Part shown: one piece after another, positions 1,903 through 64,000 of the stretch
Layout of the letters: each line of letters opens with the position of its first letter
Numbering within the stretch: position 1 is the first letter of the stretch
Source: Vitreimonas sp.
GTDB lineage: Bacteria; Patescibacteriota; Microgenomatia; UBA1400; PJMF01
Assembly: GCA_035627515.1 (NCBI GenBank)
Contig: DASPLQ010000012.1
Location: forward strand, 567,558 to 631,557
Length of the DNA: 64,000 nt
Reading direction: 5' to 3'
Position numbers and translations under genes: made by a program
Notes under the pieces: model-generated
What the model saw: only the letters and a program-made list of their open reading frames with translations
Database searches by the model: none
Told to the model about the DNA's origin: nothing

Positions 1903-2574
1903 GTGAAAAAAGCTTTTCAACAATTGGTTTTACACTTTAACCATGCACGATCGATAGTAAGTAAGTCATCTTGGCAAACAAAGCTTTTACTATCTGCCAT
2001 CATTATTTTAGCCCTCATTAACTATCAGTTAGCTAAGCTCACTCAGCGCTTGATGATAGCTGTGTATCCCAGTTGGTCATACCATCTGACCATTTCTGTG
2101 CCATGGTTTTTGATTTGTTTTCTTCCCGCGGCAGCTCAGTATCGTTACTCAGGTCTGGAAATAAATCGCCAGCAGTTTCTAAAAAAGTGGCCAGAAATCA
2201 TTGGTTCATTTTTGTTAATTATGATCGGCTTGGTTGTATTTGTATTATTAGGGGTGACGGCCTTCTTTCATAACGTCAAATCGCCGCTCATTTTCTTTTT
2301 GGTGACGCCGATAGTGGAAGAGTTGTTGTTTCGAGGGTGGATATATGGCCAATTAGAAAAGTATAAGCTGTATCCAATAATGGGTTCAGCGATGTTATTT
2401 GGTTTACATCACCTTCAATATTTTGGATACCGACCCACCCCGTTTGCATTATTTCAAATTACGTACACTTTGTTATTGGGTTTATTTTTTGGAGTGATGC
2501 GCAAGAAAAGTGGCAGTATCTATCCATCCCTAGTAACACACATCATTATTAATTGGGTGACAGTGTATTTTTAA
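1903..2574 (+). CDS. CPBP-family intramembrane metalloprotease (CAAX protease/Abi-like)
   Basis: Multi-TM protein with EELLFRG and a downstream LFGLHHL motif typical of the CPBP/Abi family. Confidence 0.6.
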   Translation: MKKAFQQLVLHFNHARSIVSKSSWQTKLLLSAIIILALINYQLAKLTQRLMIAVYPSWSYHLTISVPWFLICFLPAAAQYRYSGLEINRQQFLKKWPEIIGSFLLIMIGLVVFVLLGVTAFFHNVKSPLIFFLVTPIVEELLFRGWIYGQLEKYKLYPIMGSAMLFGLHHLQYFGYRPTPFALFQITYTLLLGLFFGVMRKKSGSIYPSLVTHIIINWVTVYF

Positions 2575-2589
2575 AGTTAAGCTAGAGAA

Positions 2590-2598
2590 TGATATAAT
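2590..2598 (+). promoter_or_regulatory. extended -10 element TGaTATAAT
   Basis: TGnTATAAT match about 36 nt upstream of ATG 2634. Confidence 0.35.
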
Positions 2599-2633
2599 TT
2601 ATACTTATTTATTGCGTATAAGTTAATTTTTCT

Positions 2634-3506
2634 ATGGCTGCTGAACACCTTAAAATCCAGTTTGGGGACTCTCGAGATCAGCTTTTATTTAAGAAGGTCC
2701 AAACTACTCCCGCTACTCAGCGCGTCATTTTAGCTGGCGGATGCCCTTCGTATACAGAAGTGGCGAAAAGTTATCCCAACCAAAGTACAAAATCGGGTTT
2801 AAAAATTGCCAGTTTTACTCCAGGAGGAGAAAAAACAGGTCCCTATGCTCGCAAACTGCGTCGATTGGCAGCTCATTTTAATGATGGAACGCCTTTAACC
2901 ATCGACGCTTATATTTCTGACTGGGTACCACTACTCAGTATTTTTGCAGCTGAAAACCAACTCTTTTTAACTGAGTGGTTAGCGGATCGCTATCATCTCC
3001 GCCCTTCCCAATTACAGCATTTAATAAAGGGTATTCTAAATAATAATGTGCAATCTTCAGCAGATGAGATCAATCACGCCACTCAAGAAAGTGTGGAGGC
3101 CATACAAGACCAACTCCAGGATAAATTTCCGATGCAGACACTGTCACATAGCCGCGAGCTTGTTCGGGCTTTTAACCCCTCTTTGACAGAAGCACAGCTT
3201 GATAGTATCAGAAATGATCTAAAAGTACTGATCAAAGCTGTTTTTATTGGTTTAGAAAGATTTAATAAAGACTGGATCATGAGGCCGAACGCTTCAGAAG
3301 GCATTTGGAAACATATTTACCGGACTGATTTTGAGTTACTGCCTGCAGCGCGGTATGGAAAGAATCCAGGCCAACAAGTGGTTTTTTTGAGTTTGCCCAA
3401 GTTAGATAAGAACCCCCACCGTCCTCAACTTACTGCTGGAGCGGAGGAGCGATTGGATCCCCAGACACCAGTCATATTAGATATCCAAGCCTCAATTAGT
3501 TTATAA
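2634..3506 (+). CDS. hypothetical protein
   Basis: 290-aa ORF with no recognisable motif; stop overlaps the next start (TAATG). Confidence 0.45.
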   Translation: MAAEHLKIQFGDSRDQLLFKKVQTTPATQRVILAGGCPSYTEVAKSYPNQSTKSGLKIASFTPGGEKTGPYARKLRRLAAHFNDGTPLTIDAYISDWVPLLSIFAAENQLFLTEWLADRYHLRPSQLQHLIKGILNNNVQSSADEINHATQESVEAIQDQLQDKFPMQTLSHSRELVRAFNPSLTEAQLDSIRNDLKVLIKAVFIGLERFNKDWIMRPNASEGIWKHIYRTDFELLPAARYGKNPGQQVVFLSLPKLDKNPHRPQLTAGAEERLDPQTPVILDIQASISL

Positions 3507-5251
3507 TGCAACCACACCCTATGATGTGGTCAAACTTTCCTTTATCCGGCATCATTTTCGTGATTGCCATCTTCTTTGTTTTACCCTTTCTGGTGACTGT
3601 CGTTCTTCCAGCCTGGTTAGTACCTATGATCATGCGCTGGGTGCTGAATAGACAGCCTCGTTATGATTTACCGTCTCTAAAACCGTTCATGTTAAGCTTG
3701 ATGGGCTTAGCCATTGCGGCTAACTTTTTCTGGGATTACGTCATTTTTAATAACATTTATTATGAATGGGATCGCATTTTTTTGCCGTATACCTTTCTAT
3801 GGCATGAAACACCATCTTTAGGTATGGGGCCAAATTGGCTAGCTGACGGGTGGGAATTAAAACATTTATTTGCTGCGTGGTTACTCATAACTGTGGCCAT
3901 TTATGTGACATCAGCCCTGATTGCGGCGTACCGGGCCCGACATCACCATCATCGGGTGCGGTATCACAAAATTTTAATTGGGTCGGTATTATTGCTGAGC
4001 TTAGCTAGTTTGACCTTGCCACCCGTAGTGATGCGAGGGATTGCTTTATTATGGAATGGCCCAGCTAATCTGAATTATGAGGAAGTCAACGTCTCCTGCC
4101 GGCCATCCGAAGCGCCTCAACCACGTGTATTATTTACCAATGGCCAAGAAGAGTGGGTGACAGAACTTGATGGGTCTCATCAACGTCCCGCTTTTGATAA
4201 ACATTTGCAACTGCGTAGCATCTCGGATTATTTGTCGCCTGATGACTCAATGGCAGCCATTTTATGGGGACAGGACCTGTGGATTTATTGTCTCAACACT
4301 GAGGGAGCACTCAAGATTTCACTGCCCGTCTTTGATAAATTATATGGTCCAGGGGCACCACGAAGCTTCCCATCGTGGTCACCGGATGGTACAGAAATGG
4401 CGATGAATAACAAGGGCGATTTACTACTCATTAATCTGGCCAGTAAAACTACCCAGGTGCTAAAAGCTCAAATCGCGTGGCGAGATAACCACGTCGATTT
4501 GCGTTCTAAAAATCGCGATAAGATGTTAGCGCCATATGAATATGGTGATGCCTATTGGAGCCGAGATAATTTTATTTACTACACTCGTTTTGAAGGTGAT
4601 ACCGTGAAGCTTAACAAGCTTAATCCCACCACTAATGAAGAGCAAACCGTATATGAGGCAGCGCACCCCATTTATATCAATGGTGGTAGTCCCACTGGGG
4701 AGTGGTTAGCTCTGTCTGAGTATGATTGGTCCGCACAGCGTTCAACTACCTCACCGCTGAATAAAAAAGTACTGCTGAATACGAAAACGCTGGCTTTATT
4801 AACTGAGTTTCCCACTGGTCCCCAACCAGATTTTGGGGTGCCGCTAGGGGAGATCATTTGGTCACCATCGGGTAAGTACATGGCTCAAAACCACGGGAAT
4901 ATGCTGCAAACCAGTGGCTTTGAAGGTCCCTCAGTGCCGGTAGTGAGTTTTGAGGAAGAACATTATTACTCTGTGACTTACAAAGTGGATACTGCCCTCG
5001 GTAAAAAAGGTATTGTTTTAGATGGAGAGACCTTAGCGGTGGAGCTGAAAGATTTTGTAGATGACACGCATGTGTTAGTTAAAATTATTATTACTGAAGG
5101 TTCATTGATGAACCGAGCTGGCCAACCTCGCCAAATCAATGCTATCTTGGATATTAAGGCGGAAGAAATGCAGATTTTGCATGATTACCCTTATCGCAGT
5201 TTTGATGAACCATCAGTTGCGCGTTTAGAGCCACTAGCAGTAATTAGGTAG
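3506..5251 (+). CDS. membrane-anchored beta-propeller protein (PD40/TolB-like repeats)
   Basis: About five N-terminal TM helices and a His-rich loop; C-terminal repeats such as SWSPDGTEMA and IIWSPSGKYMA typical of PD40/WD40-like propellers. Confidence 0.5.
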   Translation: MQPHPMMWSNFPLSGIIFVIAIFFVLPFLVTVVLPAWLVPMIMRWVLNRQPRYDLPSLKPFMLSLMGLAIAANFFWDYVIFNNIYYEWDRIFLPYTFLWHETPSLGMGPNWLADGWELKHLFAAWLLITVAIYVTSALIAAYRARHHHHRVRYHKILIGSVLLLSLASLTLPPVVMRGIALLWNGPANLNYEEVNVSCRPSEAPQPRVLFTNGQEEWVTELDGSHQRPAFDKHLQLRSISDYLSPDDSMAAILWGQDLWIYCLNTEGALKISLPVFDKLYGPGAPRSFPSWSPDGTEMAMNNKGDLLLINLASKTTQVLKAQIAWRDNHVDLRSKNRDKMLAPYEYGDAYWSRDNFIYYTRFEGDTVKLNKLNPTTNEEQTVYEAAHPIYINGGSPTGEWLALSEYDWSAQRSTTSPLNKKVLLNTKTLALLTEFPTGPQPDFGVPLGEIIWSPSGKYMAQNHGNMLQTSGFEGPSVPVVSFEEEHYYSVTYKVDTALGKKGIVLDGETLAVELKDFVDDTHVLVKIIITEGSLMNRAGQPRQINAILDIKAEEMQILHDYPYRSFDEPSVARLEPLAVIR

Positions 5252-5257
5252 CAGCTC

Positions 5258-6466
5258 ATGGTAACTACACTTTTTCCCTTCTCACATCTTCGCAACATCG
5301 CGTTGTTTTATGTCTTGAGCGCTGTCTACAACGCGTGGGTAGTGGCTGGGGTGTGGGTATTTGTGTGGGGACGATTCATGACTAAGACCCAAATTGGAGT
5401 TTCTGATGCCTTTACCTTTGCGATTGGTTTTTTGGTGGAGTTACCTTCGGGGGTGATGGCCGATATCATCGGTCGCAAAAAGGCAATTGTGATTGGCAAT
5501 GTGCTGTTAATGGTGGGTAATCTGTTGATTGCTGTCAGTAGCTCTTTTTTTAGCATTACGGGCTGGTATTTAGTCTGGACAATCGGGTATGCATTTCAAT
5601 CAGGAGCCACTGAAGCGTTAGCCTACGACACTCTGCGCCAGGCTGGTCACGAAAAAGAGTGGTCCCGAGTGATGGCAACTGCCATGACGATCTCACGTAT
5701 TTCGACTCTAGTTTCTACTGCCGCCGGTGGGTACTTGTTTATGTACTGGTTCAGGTTGCCATACCTTGTGTTTGGTTTAATTAGCATTATTGGCGTGTTA
5801 GCAGCGTTATCACTCAAAGAAATCAAAGTCTCTAAAGTCATTAATACATGGTCATGGCGCAGTTATGTGACTCAAATCAAAGATGGGGTGGCGGTGTTAG
5901 TGCGGCCACAGATTTTACCGATTGCCCTCGTGTCACTGACAATGATGGGCATTGGGTATATGTATAACTGGGGCTTAGTGAGACCGCTGACCGGAGAGCG
6001 CTTTGGCTATACACCAGAAGCGTACTCTTTGTTATTAGGAGTGATCTCAGTTGCCGGCATCATTGCTTTGACTGTGTTTACTCGTCTCCAACATCGTTTT
6101 AAAACTGAGCTTTCGATCCTGATTCTAGCTTTAGCTTATGCTCTCAACTTCGCGTTATTAAGTGGGTCTTATCACTGGCTAATCGGTGGAGGCGTGATGA
6201 TATCATTAGCCGTCTGGTTGCTGTATATCGATGTCTTATTTTCACAATTTATAAACCTCCACACTCGGGAAGAGCACCGGGCTACAACCTTGTCGACTGT
6301 CGCTCTCTTCACGCGGCTGCCATATGTGGTGTTGGCGATAGTGATTGGTCGGTTAGCTGATAATAATCTGGTGGCACTCTATACTTTGACAGTCGGATGT
6401 GTGGGCATTATGGTTTGGATAGTAGCACTGGCTTTATATTGGAGATCAAGAAAACTTACGTCTTAA
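5258..6466 (+). CDS. MFS transporter
   Basis: 12-TM topology; MADIIGRKKAIVIGNVLLMVG resembles the MFS loop 2-3 signature. Confidence 0.6.
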   Translation: MVTTLFPFSHLRNIALFYVLSAVYNAWVVAGVWVFVWGRFMTKTQIGVSDAFTFAIGFLVELPSGVMADIIGRKKAIVIGNVLLMVGNLLIAVSSSFFSITGWYLVWTIGYAFQSGATEALAYDTLRQAGHEKEWSRVMATAMTISRISTLVSTAAGGYLFMYWFRLPYLVFGLISIIGVLAALSLKEIKVSKVINTWSWRSYVTQIKDGVAVLVRPQILPIALVSLTMMGIGYMYNWGLVRPLTGERFGYTPEAYSLLLGVISVAGIIALTVFTRLQHRFKTELSILILALAYALNFALLSGSYHWLIGGGVMISLAVWLLYIDVLFSQFINLHTREEHRATTLSTVALFTRLPYVVLAIVIGRLADNNLVALYTLTVGCVGIMVWIVALALYWRSRKLTS

Positions 6467-37095: not shown

Positions 37096-37857
37096 ATGTC
37101 GACCTCAACCTTACGCGTGCGAAATTTGCGCGCTTCTATTGAAGACACTGAAATTTTAAAAGGCATTGACTTGAGCGTGAAGCCAGGTGAAATTCATGCT
37201 GTGATGGGTCCTAATGGTTCTGGTAAATCAACCTTGGCCTATACATTAGCTGGTCATCCGAGTTATGAAATTGCCGAGGGCAGTGAAGTGAGCTTAGATG
37301 GCGAAGACGTGTTAGAGATGTCTCCTGATGAGCGGGCCAATGCCGGTTTGTTTTTAGCTTTTCAGTATCCCATCGAGATTCCGGGTGTCAAAGTCCAGAA
37401 CTTTTTGCGGATGGCGTACGAAGCCCGTTTTGTAGATCAAGAAGACAAAAAATTTCCCTCAGTCCTGAAATTTCGTGAACACGTCGAAAAGCTGGCTGAT
37501 GAACTGGAAGTTAATAAAGAATTACTCAAGCGTGGTTTAAACGAAGGTTTTAGTGGTGGTGAAAAGAAACGCTTAGAAATCCTTCAAATGGCGGTACTCG
37601 AGCCGAAGTATGCCATCCTCGATGAAACTGATTCTGGCCTCGATATCGATGCTATAAAAGCCGTCGCTCACGGCGTCAAAAAAATTGTGTCCAAATATAA
37701 CACCGGGATAGTAGTAATTACCCACTATCAGCGCATTCTGGAGTACCTGAAACCAGATTTTGTGCATGTGCTCGTCAAAGGCAAAATTGCACAAAGTGGC
37801 AGCGGCGAGCTCGTCGACAAGCTCGAAAAGCAAGGGTACAAAGAGTGGGTTGAGTAG
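37096..37857 (+). CDS. sufC: Fe-S cluster assembly ATPase SufC
   Basis: Walker A GPNGSGKST, signature FSGGEKKR, Walker B ILDETDSGLD. Confidence 0.9.
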   Translation: MSTSTLRVRNLRASIEDTEILKGIDLSVKPGEIHAVMGPNGSGKSTLAYTLAGHPSYEIAEGSEVSLDGEDVLEMSPDERANAGLFLAFQYPIEIPGVKVQNFLRMAYEARFVDQEDKKFPSVLKFREHVEKLADELEVNKELLKRGLNEGFSGGEKKRLEILQMAVLEPKYAILDETDSGLDIDAIKAVAHGVKKIVSKYNTGIVVITHYQRILEYLKPDFVHVLVKGKIAQSGSGELVDKLEKQGYKEWVE

Positions 37858-37881
37858 GGGAATAAGTGGAAAGAAATTTAT

Positions 37882-38550
37882 ATGCCAGGCATGCCCGCAT
37901 TACAGGAAACAAGTTATCTCACCCAAGCTTATTTACGAGCGACAGGTGTGCAAGTTAAGACAGAAAAAGACGTCGCAACTCATGAAAATAGAGGAGTTGA
38001 TTTTGATGTGTGGGTAAATATTTTGCCTAACCTTTTAACACAGATTAGAAGTGTGGCTGAACCATGGTTACTCAAATGGTATTTTATTCAACGCTGTAAG
38101 ACTGAGGAGGAATTAAAACCGCTGCAAAATTTTGGCATGTTTGAAGAGTGGAAGTATGTTCGGAATAGTATAGTCACCCCTACATTGAAATCAGAGCAAA
38201 TGAAGCAAGTTTCACTTGAACAGCAACAAGCTATGAAACGTTGCGTCCGTATCATTAATCTTTACTTTCATTTAGTTGAGGGGGGACGTTCCATAGACAA
38301 AGTAGAAGATACGTTGAGGGAAATTTACTTTATGGAAGACGAAGCAGGGCATATCGAGAGTTTAGGAGATGATGGTAAGCCATATCCCGAAACCGAGCAC
38401 GCAAATCTTTTGTTGAATTATGCCGTAACTATGAGTGTCTTATTTAGGGATCAGGAGCAACCCCCAATTCATCGTTTTATACCGAGAGAGCCTATTACTA
38501 ACCCATCACCTCGTCAAGAAAATAACGGTTATAAGCAAATTGGAAATTAA
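37882..38550 (+). CDS. hypothetical protein (lower GC, inserted between sufC and sufB)
   Basis: 222-aa ORF with no recognisable motif; GC about 40% versus about 48% in the flanking suf genes. Confidence 0.4.
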   Translation: MPGMPALQETSYLTQAYLRATGVQVKTEKDVATHENRGVDFDVWVNILPNLLTQIRSVAEPWLLKWYFIQRCKTEEELKPLQNFGMFEEWKYVRNSIVTPTLKSEQMKQVSLEQQQAMKRCVRIINLYFHLVEGGRSIDKVEDTLREIYFMEDEAGHIESLGDDGKPYPETEHANLLLNYAVTMSVLFRDQEQPPIHRFIPREPITNPSPRQENNGYKQIGN

Positions 38551-38565
38551 AGTAGGAGTTACTAT

Positions 38566-39051
38566 ATGTCTTACTTAACCGAAGCACTTACTCAACTTGA
38601 AGGCTCATCTGCAAAGGTAGCAGAAACAGGAGTAATTACTCCTAGTGAGGTCCAGACCTTGGCAGATCATCAACATGTTTTGGCTGCTCAATTAATGAAG
38701 TTACAACTTATTTTAGATGTGTGGTTTGCTGAGGAACAACAAAGAGTAGTCGAAGGGGCTGAAGAACCACACGTAGCTGAATATGACGAAAAACAGTTTG
38801 GTGATCATGAGGTGTGGTTAGAGTTATGGAAGAAATATCTGAAAAAAGATGAGGAAACAGAACCACTAAGTCCTAATCAACAACCATCTAAGCCAGAGTT
38901 TCAACCAGCAACTATGGCTCAAATTAATTATGTTATTAAAGCAATCGAGATCTATTTTTTCTATCTTAAAGGTGATGCATCCTGGGAGATAGTGGAAATG
39001 ATTTTCAACGCTCGCCCCACTACCGAGCTAGTGGTTAGAGATTACGATTAG
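38566..39051 (+). CDS. hypothetical acidic protein (lower GC, inserted between sufC and sufB)
   Basis: 161-aa ORF preceded by AGGAG; no recognisable motif. Confidence 0.4.
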   Translation: MSYLTEALTQLEGSSAKVAETGVITPSEVQTLADHQHVLAAQLMKLQLILDVWFAEEQQRVVEGAEEPHVAEYDEKQFGDHEVWLELWKKYLKKDEETEPLSPNQQPSKPEFQPATMAQINYVIKAIEIYFFYLKGDASWEIVEMIFNARPTTELVVRDYD

Positions 39052-39099
39052 GACATCTACTCAGCTCTTGAACCAACTTCCTGGTAAAATATAACCTCT

Positions 39100-40527
39100 A
39101 TGGCCAGGTTTGCGCAAAAACATACCGATAAGTTTGATCCTCAAGCAATTGATGCGTATGAGCATGGGTACTCGTTTTCAACGAGTGGGTATTCGTATAT
39201 CACGCAGCCAGGTTTGAATGAGGGCGTTGTTAAAGAGATTTCTCACCTCAAAGGTGAGCCGGAGTGGATGCTCAACTTTCGATTGAAGGCCTACGAGCAG
39301 TTCCAAGCCAAGCAGATGCCTCCCTGGGGAGCTGATTTATCTGGCATTAACTTTGAGGCGATTCGTTATTACTTGCGACCGACAGATCAAGCGGTGAAAT
39401 CGTGGAATGACGTTCCGGCCGATGTCAAAAAAACCTTTGATCGTTTAGGCATTCCCGAAGCCGAGCGCAACGTTTTAGCTGGTGTCAAAGCTCAGTATGA
39501 CTCCGAAGTGGTGTATGGTTCTTTGAAACAGGTTTGGGCGAAAGATGGCGTGGTTTTCTTGTCGATGGATGAGGGTTTGAAGGAGTATCCCGATTTAGTT
39601 AAAGAATATTTTGGCAAAGTCATTCCCAGTGGCGACAACAAATTTGCCGCTTTAAATAGTGCGGTTTGGTCAGGTGGCTCGTTTGTGTACGTGCCCAAAG
39701 GTGTGCACGTTAAGATGCCACTGCAAACGTACTTCCGGATTAATGCCGAAAATGCTGGCCAATTTGAACGGACGTTAATCATTGTTGATGAAGGTGCCTC
39801 GGTTCATTATGTTGAGGGCTGCACCGCGCCGAACTTCTCATCCAACTCTTTGCACTCTGCCGTTGTCGAAATCTTTGTCAAAAAAGGTGCTCGCTGCCAA
39901 TACACTACCATCCAAAATTGGTACAAAAATATTTACAACTTAGTCACTAAACGCGCCTACGTAGAAGAAGAAGGTGAGATGGTGTGGACAGACTTCAACA
40001 TGGGTTCCAAAGTGACGATGAAGTATCCAGGGTTTATCCTGGCTGGCAAAGGTGCCCGTGGTGAGACGTTATCTATGGCGCTGGCTGGTAAAGGCCAACA
40101 CCAAGACACTGGTTCCAAAGCTATTCACTTAGCACCGTATACCAGTTCTACTATTATTTCTAAATCGATTAGTAAAAGCGGCGGCCGCACCAGTTATCGT
40201 GGGTTAGTTAACGTCGGTCCCAAAGCGTATGGTAGCAAAAATACCGTCATTTGTGACGCGTTGTTGCTTGATCCTTACTCACAATCGGACACCTATCCTG
40301 TCGATAAAGTTTTTAACTCTAATGTCCAAGTCCAGCACGAAGCCACAGTTTCCAAAATTGGTGATGACCAACTCTTTTACTTAATGAGTCGTGGTGTCAC
40401 CGAAGAAGATGCGCGCAAGTTGATTGTGAATGGTTTTATTGAAGGTTTGGTACGCCAATTGCCTCTCGAATACGCCGTAGAAATGAACCGCCTGATTGAT
40501 TACGAAATGGAAGGTAGTATTGGGTAA
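39100..40527 (+). CDS. sufB: Fe-S cluster assembly protein SufB
   Basis: Conserved SufB core and C-terminal FYLMSRGV...LIVNGF motif. Confidence 0.9.
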   Translation: MARFAQKHTDKFDPQAIDAYEHGYSFSTSGYSYITQPGLNEGVVKEISHLKGEPEWMLNFRLKAYEQFQAKQMPPWGADLSGINFEAIRYYLRPTDQAVKSWNDVPADVKKTFDRLGIPEAERNVLAGVKAQYDSEVVYGSLKQVWAKDGVVFLSMDEGLKEYPDLVKEYFGKVIPSGDNKFAALNSAVWSGGSFVYVPKGVHVKMPLQTYFRINAENAGQFERTLIIVDEGASVHYVEGCTAPNFSSNSLHSAVVEIFVKKGARCQYTTIQNWYKNIYNLVTKRAYVEEEGEMVWTDFNMGSKVTMKYPGFILAGKGARGETLSMALAGKGQHQDTGSKAIHLAPYTSSTIISKSISKSGGRTSYRGLVNVGPKAYGSKNTVICDALLLDPYSQSDTYPVDKVFNSNVQVQHEATVSKIGDDQLFYLMSRGVTEEDARKLIVNGFIEGLVRQLPLEYAVEMNRLIDYEMEGSIG

Positions 40528-40530
40528 CGT

Positions 40531-40956
40531 ATGCCAGAGACTTACCATCGTAAAATCGTCGTTGACGACAACATCGCGACTTTGTTGTACCAGCCGCTGA
40601 GTGACCGTCAAGGACAATTACACCGTTTGCTAGGCTCTTTAACGGCGATTAGTCAAGGTCGGCCGCCATTAGACGCTGTGACCTATACGGACTATCCCCA
40701 GCCTGCTGAGCCCGACCAGGAAATCTTATTTTTTGATTTTCCCTTATGGTGGGAAATTAGGTTATTACAAGCGTTATGTGTTTATTCTGCGGTTGATACC
40801 AAGGAAATGATGGAACGTGACAGTATTTTATCCGATGAACTGCTGGTGGAAAGCTCCGTGCTCAAAACACGTCAAAAGTGTTTTTTTGAAGCCGTTGAAG
40901 GAGTCGAAGATATTATTAATCAACTCAGAAATCCACCATTAATTCAACTACCATGA
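40531..40956 (+). CDS. hypothetical protein, possibly the N-terminal domain of SufD
   Basis: Sits where the SufD N-domain is expected; stop overlaps the next ATG (ATGA) in a different frame. Confidence 0.3.
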   Translation: MPETYHRKIVVDDNIATLLYQPLSDRQGQLHRLLGSLTAISQGRPPLDAVTYTDYPQPAEPDQEILFFDFPLWWEIRLLQALCVYSAVDTKEMMERDSILSDELLVESSVLKTRQKCFFEAVEGVEDIINQLRNPPLIQLP

Positions 40957-41441
40957 CCGAAAAAAATATCACAATCACCAAAAATGATGAAAAGTTGCAA
41001 CTGAGTGAGTCAGGGGTTTATATCGTTAACTTAGTTAAACCCGGTGCCCAAGTTGAGATTGCGGGCGCGTTTGCTGTGGCTGGGAGTGAGAAGATCGAGG
41101 TAACCGTGATCATTCACCACAAAGCTCCTCACACTCGAGCCAATACAACCTTACGAGGTGTAGCTAATGACCAAGCACACGTTCGTTTTGTAGGTAGAAT
41201 TAAAATTGATGAGAACTGTGGTGATACCAACTCATTTTTGACTGAACGTATTTTATTATTATCAGACGATGCTAAAGCCGAAGCTGTCCCAGATCTCGAA
41301 ATCAAAAGTGATGACGTCAAGTGCTCTCATGCTGCCAGCATCAGCCGCATTCCTGAAGAACACATTTTTTATTTAATGAGCCGGGGAGTGACACGCCAAG
41401 CTGCTGAGTCACTGATTGTTGAGGGCTTTTTGAAGGTTTGA
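40953..41441 (+). CDS. sufD: SufD-like Fe-S assembly protein (beta-helix core plus C-terminal helices)
   Basis: PDLEIKSDDVKCSHAASISRI and EHIFYLMSRGV...LIVEGF match the SufB/SufD family C-terminal region. Confidence 0.6.
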   Translation: MTEKNITITKNDEKLQLSESGVYIVNLVKPGAQVEIAGAFAVAGSEKIEVTVIIHHKAPHTRANTTLRGVANDQAHVRFVGRIKIDENCGDTNSFLTERILLLSDDAKAEAVPDLEIKSDDVKCSHAASISRIPEEHIFYLMSRGVTRQAAESLIVEGFLKV

Positions 41442-41503
41442 CGGATTGATGCGTAATAGTGAATTCTTGCCAGTAATCTATTAATCCTTTATAGTAGGTC
41501 ACT

Positions 41504-41704
41504 ATGACAGACATTAAAAAGTTTGTTACAAATCCTCAGCCTAGATTTTTGCCTGCCAGTAAAAATACTTCACCAAAGAAAAAACTTTCTGAAGAAGAAA
41601 AAGAAAGAGTTATTTCTGAAGTAGTAGAAATTATTCGAGAAGGTCAGCGATTACGTGAGGAAGAAGGAAACGTAACTGGAACTCCTCATGCAGCTTTTCT
41701 ATGA
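41504..41704 (+). CDS. small charged protein, candidate antitoxin/partner of the downstream PIN gene
   Basis: 66 aa; overlaps the PIN ORF start by 17 nt; lies within the 33% GC island. Confidence 0.3.
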   Translation: MTDIKKFVTNPQPRFLPASKNTSPKKKLSEEEKERVISEVVEIIREGQRLREEEGNVTGTPHAAFL

Positions 41705-42281
41705 CCAAAGAATAACTTCTCTGGTCCAAGACAAATATATTTTCCTTGATAATGACTTTTTAAGTTTACTTTTTACCAATGAAGAGGCCTTTAGAGAAGC
41801 ATACAGCTGTTTAGCAGGGTCATATTTTCTGTTAGATTCTTTAACTATATTTGAGTTTTTAAGAAATATTTTTGTGCCTAAGGAAAGAAAAATTCGTGAA
41901 AAATTTCTTGCATCTAGCCTTGGAAATACTAGTGTTTTCTTTTTAGCTACAGACCACAACGATATCTATATTAAGACTAGAGAAAATGCTTTAATTTTAT
42001 CTAAGATATATGCCCACCAAGGTATTAATGGTAATAAAAAAAGTGGTGGACCTGGACCAATTGATTTGTTCTTGGCGGCCAAGCTGATGATTTATTCTAA
42101 AAGGAACCATTTACTGATTACGGGCAATAAAAAAGATTTCCCTACGGTTATTTTTGACACCTTATCAATCTTAAATATTGAAGATAAAAACAGTGGTACG
42201 ATGAGATGTTATAGTTTAGTCAGCTTTAACCAAGAAAAATTCGATGATTGCTTTGAGAAGTTGAACGACTTAAAAGTATAA
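41688..42281 (+). CDS. PIN-domain protein (VapC-like nuclease fold)
   Basis: N-terminal YIFLDNDFL acidic motif and C-terminal LLITGNKKDF (TxNxxDF) motif typical of PIN; low-GC island. Confidence 0.5.
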   Translation: MQLFYDQRITSLVQDKYIFLDNDFLSLLFTNEEAFREAYSCLAGSYFLLDSLTIFEFLRNIFVPKERKIREKFLASSLGNTSVFFLATDHNDIYIKTRENALILSKIYAHQGINGNKKSGGPGPIDLFLAAKLMIYSKRNHLLITGNKKDFPTVIFDTLSILNIEDKNSGTMRCYSLVSFNQEKFDDCFEKLNDLKV

Positions 42282-42884
42282 CTAAATAAGTTTCCGACAA
42301 AAAAGTTTACGATGTTGTTCACAGATCCCAGCTGTTTTAATTCCTAGTCGATGTCTAGTAGTCCCATACCCGACATTGTTCTTCCAATCATATGCTGGAT
42401 ATTGGGCAGCTAACGTCACCATCAATGCATCCCGATACACTTTTGCCACGATGCTAGCAGCCGCAATACTATAGACTTTAGCATCACCTTTGACGATAAA
42501 TTCATATTCAGCTGGCCATTTAGGAAGTAACTTTTGTTTAAACGGCAAACCATCAATTGCAATTAAGTTGCATTTAGTCAGTTGATTAAGGGCTGCCTCC
42601 ATCGCATAACGTTGAGCGGCCACGATACCAAATTGATTAATCATCTCTACACTGCCCACCCCGATGCCATGACAGAGCGCAGTTTGTTGAATTTGGGCAG
42701 CTAGTTTCTCACGTACCCGAGCCGTAACTTGCTTCGAGTCATTGATGCCGCTGAGGGGCAGGTGATCAGACGCAAACACCACCGCTGCCGCCACAATAGG
42801 ACCGGCCAGCGCGCCCCGACCCACTTCATCCATACCGGCAATAAACTTTGTCCCAGCTCTCCAGTAAGGTTGCTCCCAATCCAT
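42282..42884 (-). CDS. rnhB: ribonuclease HII
   Basis: IAGMDEVGRGALAGPIV catalytic D-E segment; start placed at the MDWEQ methionine. Confidence 0.85.
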   Translation of the reverse strand: MDWEQPYWRAGTKFIAGMDEVGRGALAGPIVAAAVVFASDHLPLSGINDSKQVTARVREKLAAQIQQTALCHGIGVGSVEMINQFGIVAAQRYAMEAALNQLTKCNLIAIDGLPFKQKLLPKWPAEYEFIVKGDAKVYSIAAASIVAKVYRDALMVTLAAQYPAYDWKNNVGYGTTRHRLGIKTAGICEQHRKLFCRKLI

Positions 42885-42922
42885 CGATAATGAAATGCCC
42901 TTCATCCTGATACAATACCACT

Positions 42923-44185
42923 ATGATTGACGCTAACACAATCAAAACTGACTTTCCCATTTTAAGCCGCAAGGTGAACGATAAACCTTTGGTGTATTTA
43001 GACAATGCCGCCACCTCGCAGAAACCGAGGGCAGTCATCCAAGCAATTGTGGATTACTACGAACACCATAATGCAAATGTACATCGAGGGGTTCATCAGC
43101 TCGGTGATGAAAGTACGCGCGCCTTTCACGACTCACGCCAAGAAATTGCCCAGTTCATGGGAGCGGAGGCGGAGGAATTGGTGGTGGTTCGTAATACGAC
43201 TGAAGCCTTAAATCAAATCTGTTATACCTGGGGTGAGTACCATGTGGGAGCCGATGACGTCTTGATTGTCACGGAAATGGAGCATCATAGTAATATCGTG
43301 CCGTGGCAGGAACTAGCCAAGCGAAAAAACGCCCTCGTTAAATTTGTGACAGTCGATGATCAAGGGCGGGTGGAGCTTGATAGCCTCCAGGCCTTACTCT
43401 CTGAATATAAAACGCGAATTAAAGTAGTAGCTTTCATACATGTTTCCAATACCTTAGGCACGCTCAATCCTCTCGAAAAAATTGTAGCCACGATTGATGA
43501 TCATTTCGGTCAAGCACAGCGGCCATTACTAGTGGTCGATGGTGCTCAAGCTGCTGCTCATCTGCCCGTTAACTTTGCGAAATTAAAAGTTGATTGTTAT
43601 GTGGTTTCTGCCCACAAAATGCTTGGTCCCATGGGCATTGGTGGGTTATTAATTCGCAAATCATTACTCAAGACATGGCCACCATTTTTATTTGGGGGCG
43701 GGATGATTAATGAAGTCAGCACGCAAGGCACCACCTTTGCTGAGGATTTAGAAGAACGTTTTACCGCGGGCACACCCGATGTTGCCAGTTTAGCGGGCTG
43801 GGCAGCAGCCTGTGAGTATTTAGCTGGCGTAGGAATGCGGGAATCTCAAACTCACGATCGGCAGCTCGTGGAGTATACATTGCAACAACTGCAGACTTTT
43901 TCTCAGGTGAAAATCATTGGTCCTACTGATTTTAATGACCATGAATTTGATCGAGTTGGTTCAGTGGCGTTTGTATACGAAGGTGTCCACGCCCATGATG
44001 TGGGACAAGTGCTGGACTCCGAAGGAGTGGCTGTCCGCAGTGGCCATCACTGCACCATGCCCTTACACGTCAAATTTGGTTGGCCTGCCTCTACGCGCGT
44101 GAGTTTCCAAATTTACAACTCGATTGACGACGTCGACAGTTTTATCACTGCCCTCCAAAAAGTAAAAACTATTTTTGGAAAGTAG
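42923..44185 (+). CDS. sufS: cysteine desulfurase SufS
   Basis: Class V aminotransferase; PLP lysine in SAHKMLGP; RSGHHC active-site Cys loop. Confidence 0.9.
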   Translation: MIDANTIKTDFPILSRKVNDKPLVYLDNAATSQKPRAVIQAIVDYYEHHNANVHRGVHQLGDESTRAFHDSRQEIAQFMGAEAEELVVVRNTTEALNQICYTWGEYHVGADDVLIVTEMEHHSNIVPWQELAKRKNALVKFVTVDDQGRVELDSLQALLSEYKTRIKVVAFIHVSNTLGTLNPLEKIVATIDDHFGQAQRPLLVVDGAQAAAHLPVNFAKLKVDCYVVSAHKMLGPMGIGGLLIRKSLLKTWPPFLFGGGMINEVSTQGTTFAEDLEERFTAGTPDVASLAGWAAACEYLAGVGMRESQTHDRQLVEYTLQQLQTFSQVKIIGPTDFNDHEFDRVGSVAFVYEGVHAHDVGQVLDSEGVAVRSGHHCTMPLHVKFGWPASTRVSFQIYNSIDDVDSFITALQKVKTIFGK

Positions 44186-62121: not shown

Positions 62122-62880
62122 TTAAAACGGATCGGTTTCTAACAACCTTCTTTCGAGCATATACCCATGCGTAGCTTTAATGGGTGAGTAACAGATTTGC
62201 AACTGATCATAATCCTGTGGCCGAAAAGCTCGCAGGTCTTCAGGGGTCTGAGGGCACTCACTTTTATCGGGGCGTTGCCAACATAAATCATTAGTATGTG
62301 CCCTATAACCTGAAGACACATACAGATCGTCACTCTTTGAACATAAACCAGAGGGGGCGGTTGCCCACAGCACAAAAAAGATTGAGCCAATGCTTAATCC
62401 AGCTGAAAGGAAGGAAATAAAAAGTAAAAGTGGATTAAATTTCCATATTTGGCGGGTGTGAAAAAAGTTGGCTGGGAAATACATTAATAACGTAGTCGTC
62501 AGCGTTTCTGTGATGAAGAAAAATCTCAAAATAGTTTTGCCGTCCCATTCTCTGGCCATAGGATAAAACTGATCCATGAGATGTATGAATAGAAAAAACT
62601 GAGCGGTAATCAACGTCACGCTCGTTGCAGACATTAACAATGCACTGCCAAGAGATTGCCAGATAGTGGCAGTTTTTTTGTGACTTTGTCTTAAGTAGTA
62701 CCACCATACTGGTGCGGTAATTAAACCAACTAACACGACGAAGTAGGCCGAAAAAGCTATCACCCATAACCAAAAACTGAAAATATGACTGAGGTTATTA
62801 AAGTAAGGATGAATGAAGAAATTCTGGAAATAAATCAGTGACCAATAAAAAATTTTTTGCATAATAGAGTGAAGTCTCAT
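62122..62880 (-). CDS. membrane protein with a Cys-containing C-terminal extracytoplasmic tail
   Basis: Several TM helices; C-terminal segment carries 5 Cys. Confidence 0.4.
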   Translation of the reverse strand: MRLHSIMQKIFYWSLIYFQNFFIHPYFNNLSHIFSFWLWVIAFSAYFVVLVGLITAPVWWYYLRQSHKKTATIWQSLGSALLMSATSVTLITAQFFLFIHLMDQFYPMAREWDGKTILRFFFITETLTTTLLMYFPANFFHTRQIWKFNPLLLFISFLSAGLSIGSIFFVLWATAPSGLCSKSDDLYVSSGYRAHTNDLCWQRPDKSECPQTPEDLRAFRPQDYDQLQICYSPIKATHGYMLERRLLETDPF

Positions 62881-63017
62881 CTATTATACAGACTCAGAGT
62901 GGACGTCAATGATTTGAAATGGAACTCTGCGATTGAGTGGATAAGAGGTAAAACCGCATAGTTTGATTGGCTTGAGGTATAATCCCTTAATTAAGAGAAA
63001 GAAACTAAGGAGCAAAA

Positions 63018-63716
63018 ATGTTACAGGAACATGACCCCAACTCACGTAGTATAGACTATGAAAAACAAGTTATTCCTCAAAGTGACTGGGCGTGGTATGA
63101 ACAAGTGAGACTTAAGTTCACTCCTCTCATGAGACTTTTTACTAGGAAGCCTTTGCAAATTTTTGAAGAGTTAGTAGCAAGATCTCGAAGGCATGAAATA
63201 CCAGCTAATGATGTTCTTAATTTCATTGACAGGCGTTCGAAAGCAGATACTCAAGACATTCTGTACATAGAATCTATAGGTTATTTTTTGGATCATGAAG
63301 CAAAAAATTTTGGAGAAAATGAGATAGTTAGAGACACTATACTTGAGCATATAGACAGTATTGATCAAATAAGACTAGCTATCTTAGCAGCTCTAGGAGA
63401 AAGAAATCCTTATATTTGGAGTAGTGAAAAATCTTTCCCTCTTACCCAATCTCTACCAGATGGAGAAAATAGTGATCTGATAGAACGATATAAAGAGGCA
63501 GTAGTAAAATTATATGAATATATTGAGTCTATGCAAGACATAGATAAAGAAGAAATTATTAAATTTCTAGAATTAGAGTTAGCGGAATACCAGTTAGGTA
63601 TTAAAACTGGAAAATTTCATAATGATCGTAAAGTTGATGACAACCGCAAAAAATTTCTTGAAGAACAAATCCCTTATCTTCAAAGAGCTCTCAGTCGTTT
63701 AAAACAGTCAGTATAA
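63018..63716 (+). CDS. hypothetical protein (low GC)
   Basis: 232-aa ORF, GC about 35%; no recognisable motif. Confidence 0.4.
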   Translation: MLQEHDPNSRSIDYEKQVIPQSDWAWYEQVRLKFTPLMRLFTRKPLQIFEELVARSRRHEIPANDVLNFIDRRSKADTQDILYIESIGYFLDHEAKNFGENEIVRDTILEHIDSIDQIRLAILAALGERNPYIWSSEKSFPLTQSLPDGENSDLIERYKEAVVKLYEYIESMQDIDKEEIIKFLELELAEYQLGIKTGKFHNDRKVDDNRKKFLEEQIPYLQRALSRLKQSV

Positions 63717-63968
63717 TAGATTGGCAGAGAGATTCTTGTCGCAGTTGGAACTACATTACGTTTCGCGGACCACCACTTCGATCTAGGTGTCTAAAACCAC
63801 GCAGCTCCATGCAACTTAGTGAAATGGTGGACATCCTTTCCCAAAGATGGAACCACTTAACTGAGTGGATTTTAACATGGGGTAAAGAGCTGGAGAAGTC
63901 AAAGTACCTGGCTAACATTTCACAACCCGTCTTGAGTTTTAATCACATCTAAAGGAGTGTAACTATCA

Positions 63969-64000
63969 TGCAATCACAGAGTAATTCACCACACGAATCT
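63969..64000 (+). CDS. 5' end of a hypothetical gene (partial at the window edge)
   Basis: AAAGGAG RBS followed by ATG 63969; the ORF runs off the window. Confidence 0.25.

Follow-up and report, generated by a model that had tools for sequence, protein, structure and literature searches.

Two small overlapping genes lie between a short sufD-type gene and rnhB in the window (the whole 64-kb stretch of DNA that was analysed), in a segment of low GC content, and the question they raise is whether they form a toxin-antitoxin module, encode a ribonuclease with some other role, or simply belong to the suf region in which they are found. The segment, at positions 41445 to 42295, has a GC fraction of 0.324 and contains both genes. 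The first, ORF-S (41504..41704, plus strand), encodes 66 amino acids and is the candidate antitoxin or partner; the second, ORF-L (41688..42281, plus strand), encodes a 197-residue protein with a VapC-type PIN fold and is the candidate endoribonuclease toxin. On the left edge of what proves to be a variable junction is the gene for a SufD-type protein of just 162 residues (40953..41441, plus strand; PF01458, E-value 7e-45). On the right, and convergent with ORF-L, is rnhB, encoding RNase HII (42282..42905, minus strand; PF01351, E-value 1e-33), followed by sufS (42923..44185, plus strand; Aminotran_5, E-value 1e-119). A first-pass annotation, made without database searches, had placed reading frames of 66 and 197 amino acids here, between sufD and rnhB and overlapping by 17 nucleotides; both were recovered exactly there, the overlap is at 41688..41704 on the plus strand with ORF-L in the +1 frame, and the PF01458 and PF01351 matches bear out the identity of the flanking genes. 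The same annotation described the ORF-L stop codon as abutting that of rnhB with no spacer, and indeed the TAA at 42279-42281 is followed at once by CTA at 42282-42284, the TAG stop of rnhB on the minus strand. The module has no noteworthy direct repeats at its flanks, the 64-kb window contains no tRNA genes, and a search of 41000-42700 for an RNA component of the kind expected in a type III-like system found neither an Rfam match nor a tandem array.

ORF-L escapes every curated library that we searched. No usable match was found in Pfam, NCBIfam, PADLOC, or PHROGs; the Pfam search gave nothing at an E-value of 1 or better, PF01850 included, PADLOC-DB v2 anti-phage defence models gave 0 matches at the same cutoff for ORF-S and ORF-L, and NCBIfam models for toxin-antitoxin systems matched neither protein. 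Against PDB sequences, phmmer returned chance matches or none, and hmmsearch with a profile of the family returned 0. Database labels are uninformative: the exact match to ORF-L is annotated "hypothetical protein", and some TPA assemblies that contain homologues are labelled "Gammaproteobacteria", "Bacteroidetes", or "Vitreimonas".

Homologues themselves are numerous. Among 5.8 billion proteins, 82 were identified, with 35-51% identity to the window protein and lengths of 142-218 residues, most of them 180-200; not one of the 82 has a Pfam domain. Searching 1.84 billion cluster representatives (50% identity level) with a profile extended the set to 536 relatives at E-values of 1e-3 or better, 111 of them at 1e-30 or better; among the 150 listed of these 536, the full-length proteins are mostly about 180-210 residues long and the remainder are shorter fragments. 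Judged by sequence, then, ORF-L is a member of a distinct and sizeable family that lies outside all of the curated libraries searched. The named sources of its homologues are Patescibacteria (Beckwithbacteria, Paceibacterota, Buchananbacteria, and others), and the family has so far been encountered almost only in that group, the candidate phyla radiation. Of all Pfam families only PF01850 matches more than three members of the set of 82, and it matches just six of them, weakly, with a best E-value of 0.0039 that falls below the gathering score; no curated PIN model, PF01850 or another Pfam PIN-like family, is matched significantly.

Identification of ORF-L as a PIN-domain protein comes instead from structure prediction and from conservation, with the VapC-like group of the PIN domain-like superfamily taken as the reference class for membership (Matelska et al. 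2017, PMC5499597). An AlphaFold2 model computed from the family alignment (pLDDT 93.7, pTM 0.89) has the Rossmann-like alpha/beta/alpha fold and parallel beta-sheet seen in VapC. Foldseek searches with this model reached a probability of 1.00 and TM(target) values of 0.65-0.69, and the nearest structural matches were toxins of toxin-antitoxin systems without exception, with no processing enzymes among them. The first-pass annotation had expected a domain search to return PIN or VapC for the larger protein; Pfam did not oblige, and it was the structural comparison that recovered the fold.

Four residues, D21, S105, D126, and N147, are invariant in the 82-sequence alignment, and a further twelve (N22, D23, F24, E56, F57, L58, T145, G146, K149, D150, F151, and P152) are conserved in at least 90% of sequences. 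The two motifs singled out at first pass, IFLDNDFL and LLITGNKKDF, turn out to be the most conserved blocks of the whole family. Conservation across the 82 homologues nominates four putative catalytic residues, all encoded on the plus strand: D21 (41748-41750), E56 (41853-41855), D126 (42063-42065), and D150 (42135-42137). In the model, D21 closes beta-1, E56 falls within the helix that follows beta-2, D126 opens the "DLFLAA" helix, and the segment T145-G-N147-K-K-D150-F comes after beta-4. Catalytic sites of VapC proteins consist of D6/E43/D99/E120 plus N117 (PMC5499597), and the conserved residues of ORF-L occupy PIN active-site positions, which argues for PIN identity; the usual complement of four to five acidic residues plus a serine or threonine is present, the latter as S105, which is invariant, and T145, which is at least 90% conserved. 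The spacing of the site agrees with that of VapC D98 and N116/E119, and an hhalign comparison of the family profile to Shigella VapC, whose sequence was checked to be identical to PDB 3tnd_A, pairs D126 with D98, N147/D150 with N116/E119, and TGNKKDF with TNNTREF, but at an E-value of 0.14, which is not significant. We assign ORF-L with high confidence, on the combined weight of the model and the alignment, to the VapC-like PIN domains, with a predicted catalytic site that is complete. An inactive PIN domain is ruled out as a description of this family, since all four acidic positions are conserved. To the VapC core the protein adds a strand at the N-terminus (residues 2-5), an inserted loop (111-123), and, at the C-terminus, a beta-hairpin and helix (residues about 156-194).

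The smaller gene is more elusive. ORF-S, annotated by NCBI as a hypothetical protein, is charged (12 K+R and 11 D+E in 66 residues) and has no match in Pfam, NCBIfam, PADLOC, or PDB sequences. Its counterparts were collected from 24 related loci in species-representative genomes, 23 of which keep the upstream DNA. Directly upstream of the PIN gene, on the same strand, an ORF for 52-79 amino acids was found in 23 of 23, overlapping the start of the PIN gene in 20 (by 11-38 nucleotides) and holding the same +1 frame relation in 19 of those 20 overlapping pairs. The overlap of ORF-S and ORF-L makes translational coupling likely. Across the related loci there is no third conserved gene beside the module.

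These observations could also be read as those of a leader ORF, one that controls ORF-L expression through the overlap while the PIN protein acts without it, whether singly or through an unlinked partner. Divergence among the small proteins is very high, with a mean column identity of 22% and Met1 as the sole invariant residue; no domain is detected in ORF-S; and the retention of frame in 19 of 20 pairs is what would be seen were coupling itself the selected feature. Against this, the small proteins from different host classes have two motifs in common, a form K-N-P-K-P-x-F/Y near the N-terminus (N-P-x-P-x-F in ORF-S) and an amphipathic segment, I.EMV.IIKENKKI.E, and their lengths stay within the 52-79 range. 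A profile built from them recovers called "hypothetical proteins", the window ORF-S included, at E-values down to 1e-12. ORF-S also has strong codon-position periodicity in GC content (GC1 0.52, GC2 0.39, GC3 0.15), as coding sequence should, and a confidently predicted helix. A leader ORF is improbable on this balance; the shared motifs and the recovery of homologues by profile search indicate that ORF-S is a real, conserved partner gene.

What sort of partner it might be is constrained by what the small proteins contain. No AbrB, RHH, Phd/YefM, or HTH family from Pfam was detected in any of the 24 at an E-value of 1 or better, so that none has a recognisable VapB-type DNA-binding domain. The AlphaFold2 model of ORF-S, which rests on a shallow alignment of nine sequences and is not decisive, leaves residues 1-29 without regular structure, forms a single helix at residues 30-58 (pLDDT about 91 over residues 31-50), and ends in a disordered tail. 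With a lone helix in the model and no DNA-binding domain, canonical autoregulation of the VapB type is unsupported. The suggestion at first pass of a VapBC-like toxin-antitoxin pair therefore holds for the architecture but not for the DNA-binding domain that a VapB-type antitoxin would contribute.

A consensus scan found a promoter-like site, TTGCCA-17 nt-TATAGT, at 41467..41495 on the plus strand (10 of 12 consensus matches), ending 8 nucleotides before the ORF-S ATG, so that any leader would be very short or missing altogether. It is the best of five such sites in 2 kb, where 4.4 are expected by chance, and its position hints, weakly, at a putative promoter of a bicistronic operon. The scan found no terminator-like site at the module. 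Two loci have a disrupted PIN gene, through a C-terminal frameshift in L003 and an in-frame TAA in L015, and in both the small ORF is intact; among the related loci, an intact PIN gene never occurs unaccompanied by the small ORF. Loss of the nuclease with retention of the partner, and never the reverse, fits toxin-antitoxin logic. A Mantel test comparing small-protein to PIN-protein distances gave r = 0.13 (p = 0.2), on distances that are saturated.

Whether the pair is accessory or core was addressed by comparison of the sufD-sufS junction, using the regions around the closest SufD homologues in eight relatives (71-81% SufD identity). All eight keep a block that includes yggT, sod, an RNase_H_2-like gene, nudix, sufC, sufB, short sufD, sufS, and sufU, and in none of these eight closest relatives found does a homologue of ORF-S or ORF-L occur at the junction. 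Four have nothing there at all (L026, L030, L031, and L032, with gaps of 0-74 nucleotides). The other four contain, respectively, a terpene synthase with a 171-aa ORF (L025), a 692-aa ORF with rnhB (L027), a 130-aa ORF (L028), and a 204-aa ORF (L029); among the relatives, rnhB adjoins sufS as it does in the window only in L027. The sufD-sufS junction is a slot whose content varies, and the module is just one of several alternatives that can fill it.

The picture elsewhere is similar. In most of the 24 loci the module lies amid unrelated housekeeping genes, with neighbours such as PGK, GluRS, L,D-transpeptidase, M23 peptidase, ftsX, and ABC transporters, and in about 20 other loci it is nowhere near suf genes. 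Its distribution is patchy and its genomic context variable, and its absence from the eight closer relatives, together with these unrelated contexts, marks it as accessory. The idea of acquired cargo, raised in the first-pass annotation along with the comparison of relatives that would bear on it, is supported accordingly: the island is not conserved.

One distant syntenic locus, L003, whose SufB and SufD are 80% and 57% identical to those of the window, does have the module in the same sufD-sufS slot, with a PIN protein 46% identical to ORF-L. This shared position could mean long residence. It also lends something to the view that the pair belongs to the suf region as a vertically inherited core component, with no more than a compositional quirk behind the GC dip, as does the tendency of module GC to track host GC (r = 0.87). 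That view is nevertheless very improbable, given eight of eight closer relatives that lack the module at the junction, four of them with sufD and sufS contiguous, and the roughly 20 loci where the module is far from suf genes; a core gene pair is contradicted by the presence/absence pattern at the junction.

Base composition requires similar care in its interpretation. The drop to about 33% GC over some 850 bp reported at first pass was confirmed by measurement, with flanks at 0.450 (5 kb on each side, 10 kb in total). Of all 850-bp windows across the 64 kb (mean 0.444, sd 0.034), this segment has the lowest value; only 0.03% of them are equally low, and every one of these is the module region. 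GC3 is 0.15 in ORF-S and 0.30 in ORF-L, compared to 0.40-0.48 in neighbouring genes, which places the dip in codon usage and amino-acid composition. The module is lower in GC than its flanks in 22 of 23 related loci, by 0.084 on average (Wilcoxon p = 5e-7), and it is across these same loci that its GC correlates with that of the host. Low GC relative to the host is thus a family-wide trait. Accessory and selfish genes are generally AT-rich, and a family-wide low GC fits with this. An offset that is family-wide and follows host GC neither proves nor dates a recent transfer; recent transfer as a necessary consequence of low GC is ruled out, and the signal does not indicate recent arrival from a single AT-rich donor.

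A more serious alternative grants that the module is dispensable but denies that it is a toxin-antitoxin system. ORF-L would then be a PIN ribonuclease with a non-toxin role in RNA processing or turnover, or as a defence effector, and ORF-S its accessory subunit, adaptor, or activator. The structural elements of ORF-L beyond VapC and the lack of an antitoxin-type DNA-binding domain in ORF-S are compatible with this proposal, as is the lack of association with mobile elements: neither an integrase nor a transposase turned up among the module neighbours scanned, and no homologue of the ORF-L family occurs in IMG/VR viral contigs, INPHARED phages, or PLSDB plasmids. That the module recurs within or close to the suf block (in the window, in L003, and in L002) may be counted on the same side. 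The nearest structural matches, however, are all toxins of toxin-antitoxin systems, the distribution is patchy to the point of absence from the closest relatives, pseudogenised copies exist, and divergence is fast, with the best homologue only about 50% identical where SufB is 80% identical to that of L003. Patchiness, fast divergence, and pseudogenes are more readily explained by a dispensable gene, selfish or defensive, than by a processing enzyme, and we regard the non-toxin role as unlikely.

The explanation that we consider probable, from the analysis as a whole, is a chromosomal, accessory, two-gene operon encoding a VapBC-like type II toxin-antitoxin system with a non-canonical antitoxin. 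In such a system the promoter-like site at 41467-41495 would drive transcription of both genes, and translation of ORF-L would be coupled to that of ORF-S through the overlap. ORF-L, with its four acidic active-site residues intact, would act as a metal-dependent endoribonuclease. ORF-S would be small and largely disordered but for one long amphipathic helix, which would most likely bind and block the active-site groove of the PIN domain in the manner of the C-terminal helices of VapB and FitA, both of which occupy that groove (PMC5499597). Should ORF-S be labile, its loss would free the nuclease to cut cellular RNA, perhaps tRNA or rRNA by analogy to VapC, with growth arrest as the presumed result.

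A system of the PIN-toxin and small-antitoxin kind, most likely an ordinary accessory module, from a family new to the domain libraries, is thus the best description of the pair. In the tiny genomes of Patescibacteria few genes for toxin-antitoxin systems or defence have been recognised, and a full-text literature search found toxin-antitoxin PIN-domain proteins of Patescibacteria mentioned only in passing. Pfam, NCBIfam, PADLOC, and PHROGs do not detect the family, so surveys as now conducted would overlook it; its definition would enlarge catalogues of toxin-antitoxin and defence systems by a PIN subfamily and a new family of small partners, and would give mechanistic work a compact candidate antitoxin, ORF-S, free of any DNA-binding domain. 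What makes the finding worthwhile is the cataloguing of the family and its unusual partner protein; current understanding is unchallenged, and specialists should not be surprised. A bolder proposal is that this is a toxin-antitoxin-like family so far found almost only in the candidate phyla radiation, in which a VapC-fold nuclease with a unique C-terminal beta-hairpin and helix would be controlled by a new, disordered, NPKPxF-bearing partner devoid of a DNA-binding domain, and in which recurrent placement in variable slots of the suf block could reflect a functional link rather than an accident of insertion. We hold this to be distinctly unlikely; if the link were real, it might point, for example, to RNA-level control of growth or of Fe-S biogenesis under stress in ultra-small symbionts.

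Among known systems, VapBC stands closest. The best structural matches of ORF-L are the tRNA-fMet endonuclease of Shigella, Salmonella, and the F plasmid (PDB 3tnd and 6sd6), VapBC15, VapBC11, and VapBC21 of M. tuberculosis, and VapBC2 of Rickettsia felis. VapC and ORF-L have in common an acidic D-E-D-D/E site and a T-x-N-x-x-[DE]-F motif, in which T145-G-N147-x-x-D150-F of ORF-L parallels T-N-N-x-x-E-F of Shigella VapC. As in VapBC, a small gene on the same strand lies immediately upstream and overlaps the nuclease gene, and the module is chromosomal, accessory, and patchily distributed. The overlaps of 11-38 nucleotides are atypical in length, however, compared to the usual 1 or 4 in toxin-antitoxin operons (PMC5499597). 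ORF-L has no significant sequence similarity to VapC toxins (no PF01850 match; hhalign E-value 0.14), and it is about 60 residues longer, the excess including the N-terminal strand and the C-terminal beta-hairpin and helix; archaeal stand-alone PIN proteins (PDB 1y82, 1w8i, and 2fe1) lack these extensions. ORF-S, unlike VapB, has no AbrB, RHH, Phd, or HTH domain and falls outside known antitoxin families, and it differs likewise from FitA of the Neisseria gonorrhoeae FitAB system (PDB 2bsq), which has an RHH DNA-binding domain. For want of a curated PIN model match and of an antitoxin DNA-binding domain, the module is not filed as a strict member of VapBC. The paaR-paaA-parE and epsilon/zeta systems, unlike the module, have a third regulatory gene (PaaR and omega, respectively) and toxins that are not PIN proteins. 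Their inhibitors PaaA2 and epsilon, on the other hand, are small, largely disordered or helical proteins that do not bind DNA, and the state predicted for ORF-S is much the same.

Among the related loci that carry the module (L001-L024), the overlap between the small ORF and the VapC-like PIN-domain gene, where there is one, ranges from 11 to 38 nt. Of the 20 pairs that overlap, 19 do so by a length equal to 2 mod 3, which puts the PIN gene in the +1 frame relative to the small ORF. This regularity may mean that the geometry of coupling is conserved, or even that the two genes are fused through a +1 frameshift. Two of these loci have a disrupted PIN gene: that of L003 (5992-6616) is frameshifted at about codon 175, and that of L015 (5372-5926) has an in-frame TAA at position 5798. 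The small ORF upstream, the candidate antitoxin or partner, is intact in both. The disruptions could be assembly errors or could represent genuine decay of the toxin.

At the downstream end of the module in the window, the stop codons of the PIN gene and the convergent rnhB are adjacent (42279-42284), and no terminator-like hairpin was found in 41000-43000. The transcripts of the two genes would be expected to overlap.

At loci outside the block of suf Fe-S assembly genes, some genes recur beside the module. An M23 peptidase gene adjoins it in three loci (L006 3139-4455, L014 3558-4976, and L018 6566-7921; in L018 the peptidase gene lies beside ftsX), and a gene for an RNase_H_2-like exonuclease does so in two more (L001 6525-7172 and L017 3671-4312). 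It is possible that such surroundings are preferred insertion neighborhoods of the module.

The suf block itself contains two further variable slots. The first, between sufB and the short sufD, is occupied in the window by a 141-aa ORF (40531-40956) with no match in a Pfam search, while in relatives it is empty or holds an ORF of 61, 96, or 98 aa. The second, the sufC-sufB interval, holds ORFs of 222 and 161 aa in the window (37857-39100) and unrelated ORFs in relatives, ranging from 0 to 432 aa. In L031, a locus of one of the closest SufD relatives, SufB (2462-5026) is an intein-bearing protein of 854 aa, with matches to Hint_2, Intein_splicing, and LAGLIDADG_3.

A second low-GC stretch in the window, at 62630-63990 (GC no higher than 0.36 in 850-bp windows), has a 252-aa membrane-like ORF on the minus strand (62122-62880) and a 232-aa ORF on the plus strand (63018-63716). 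Its composition and these two ORFs together suggest that it may be another accessory insert.

The proteins that match those of the window exactly (P0001, P0083, and P0228) carry the NCBI label "Vitreimonas sp.", that is, an alphaproteobacterium. Patescibacteria account for every syntenic relative and family member whose name is informative, so the taxonomy assigned to the source MAG is probably incorrect.
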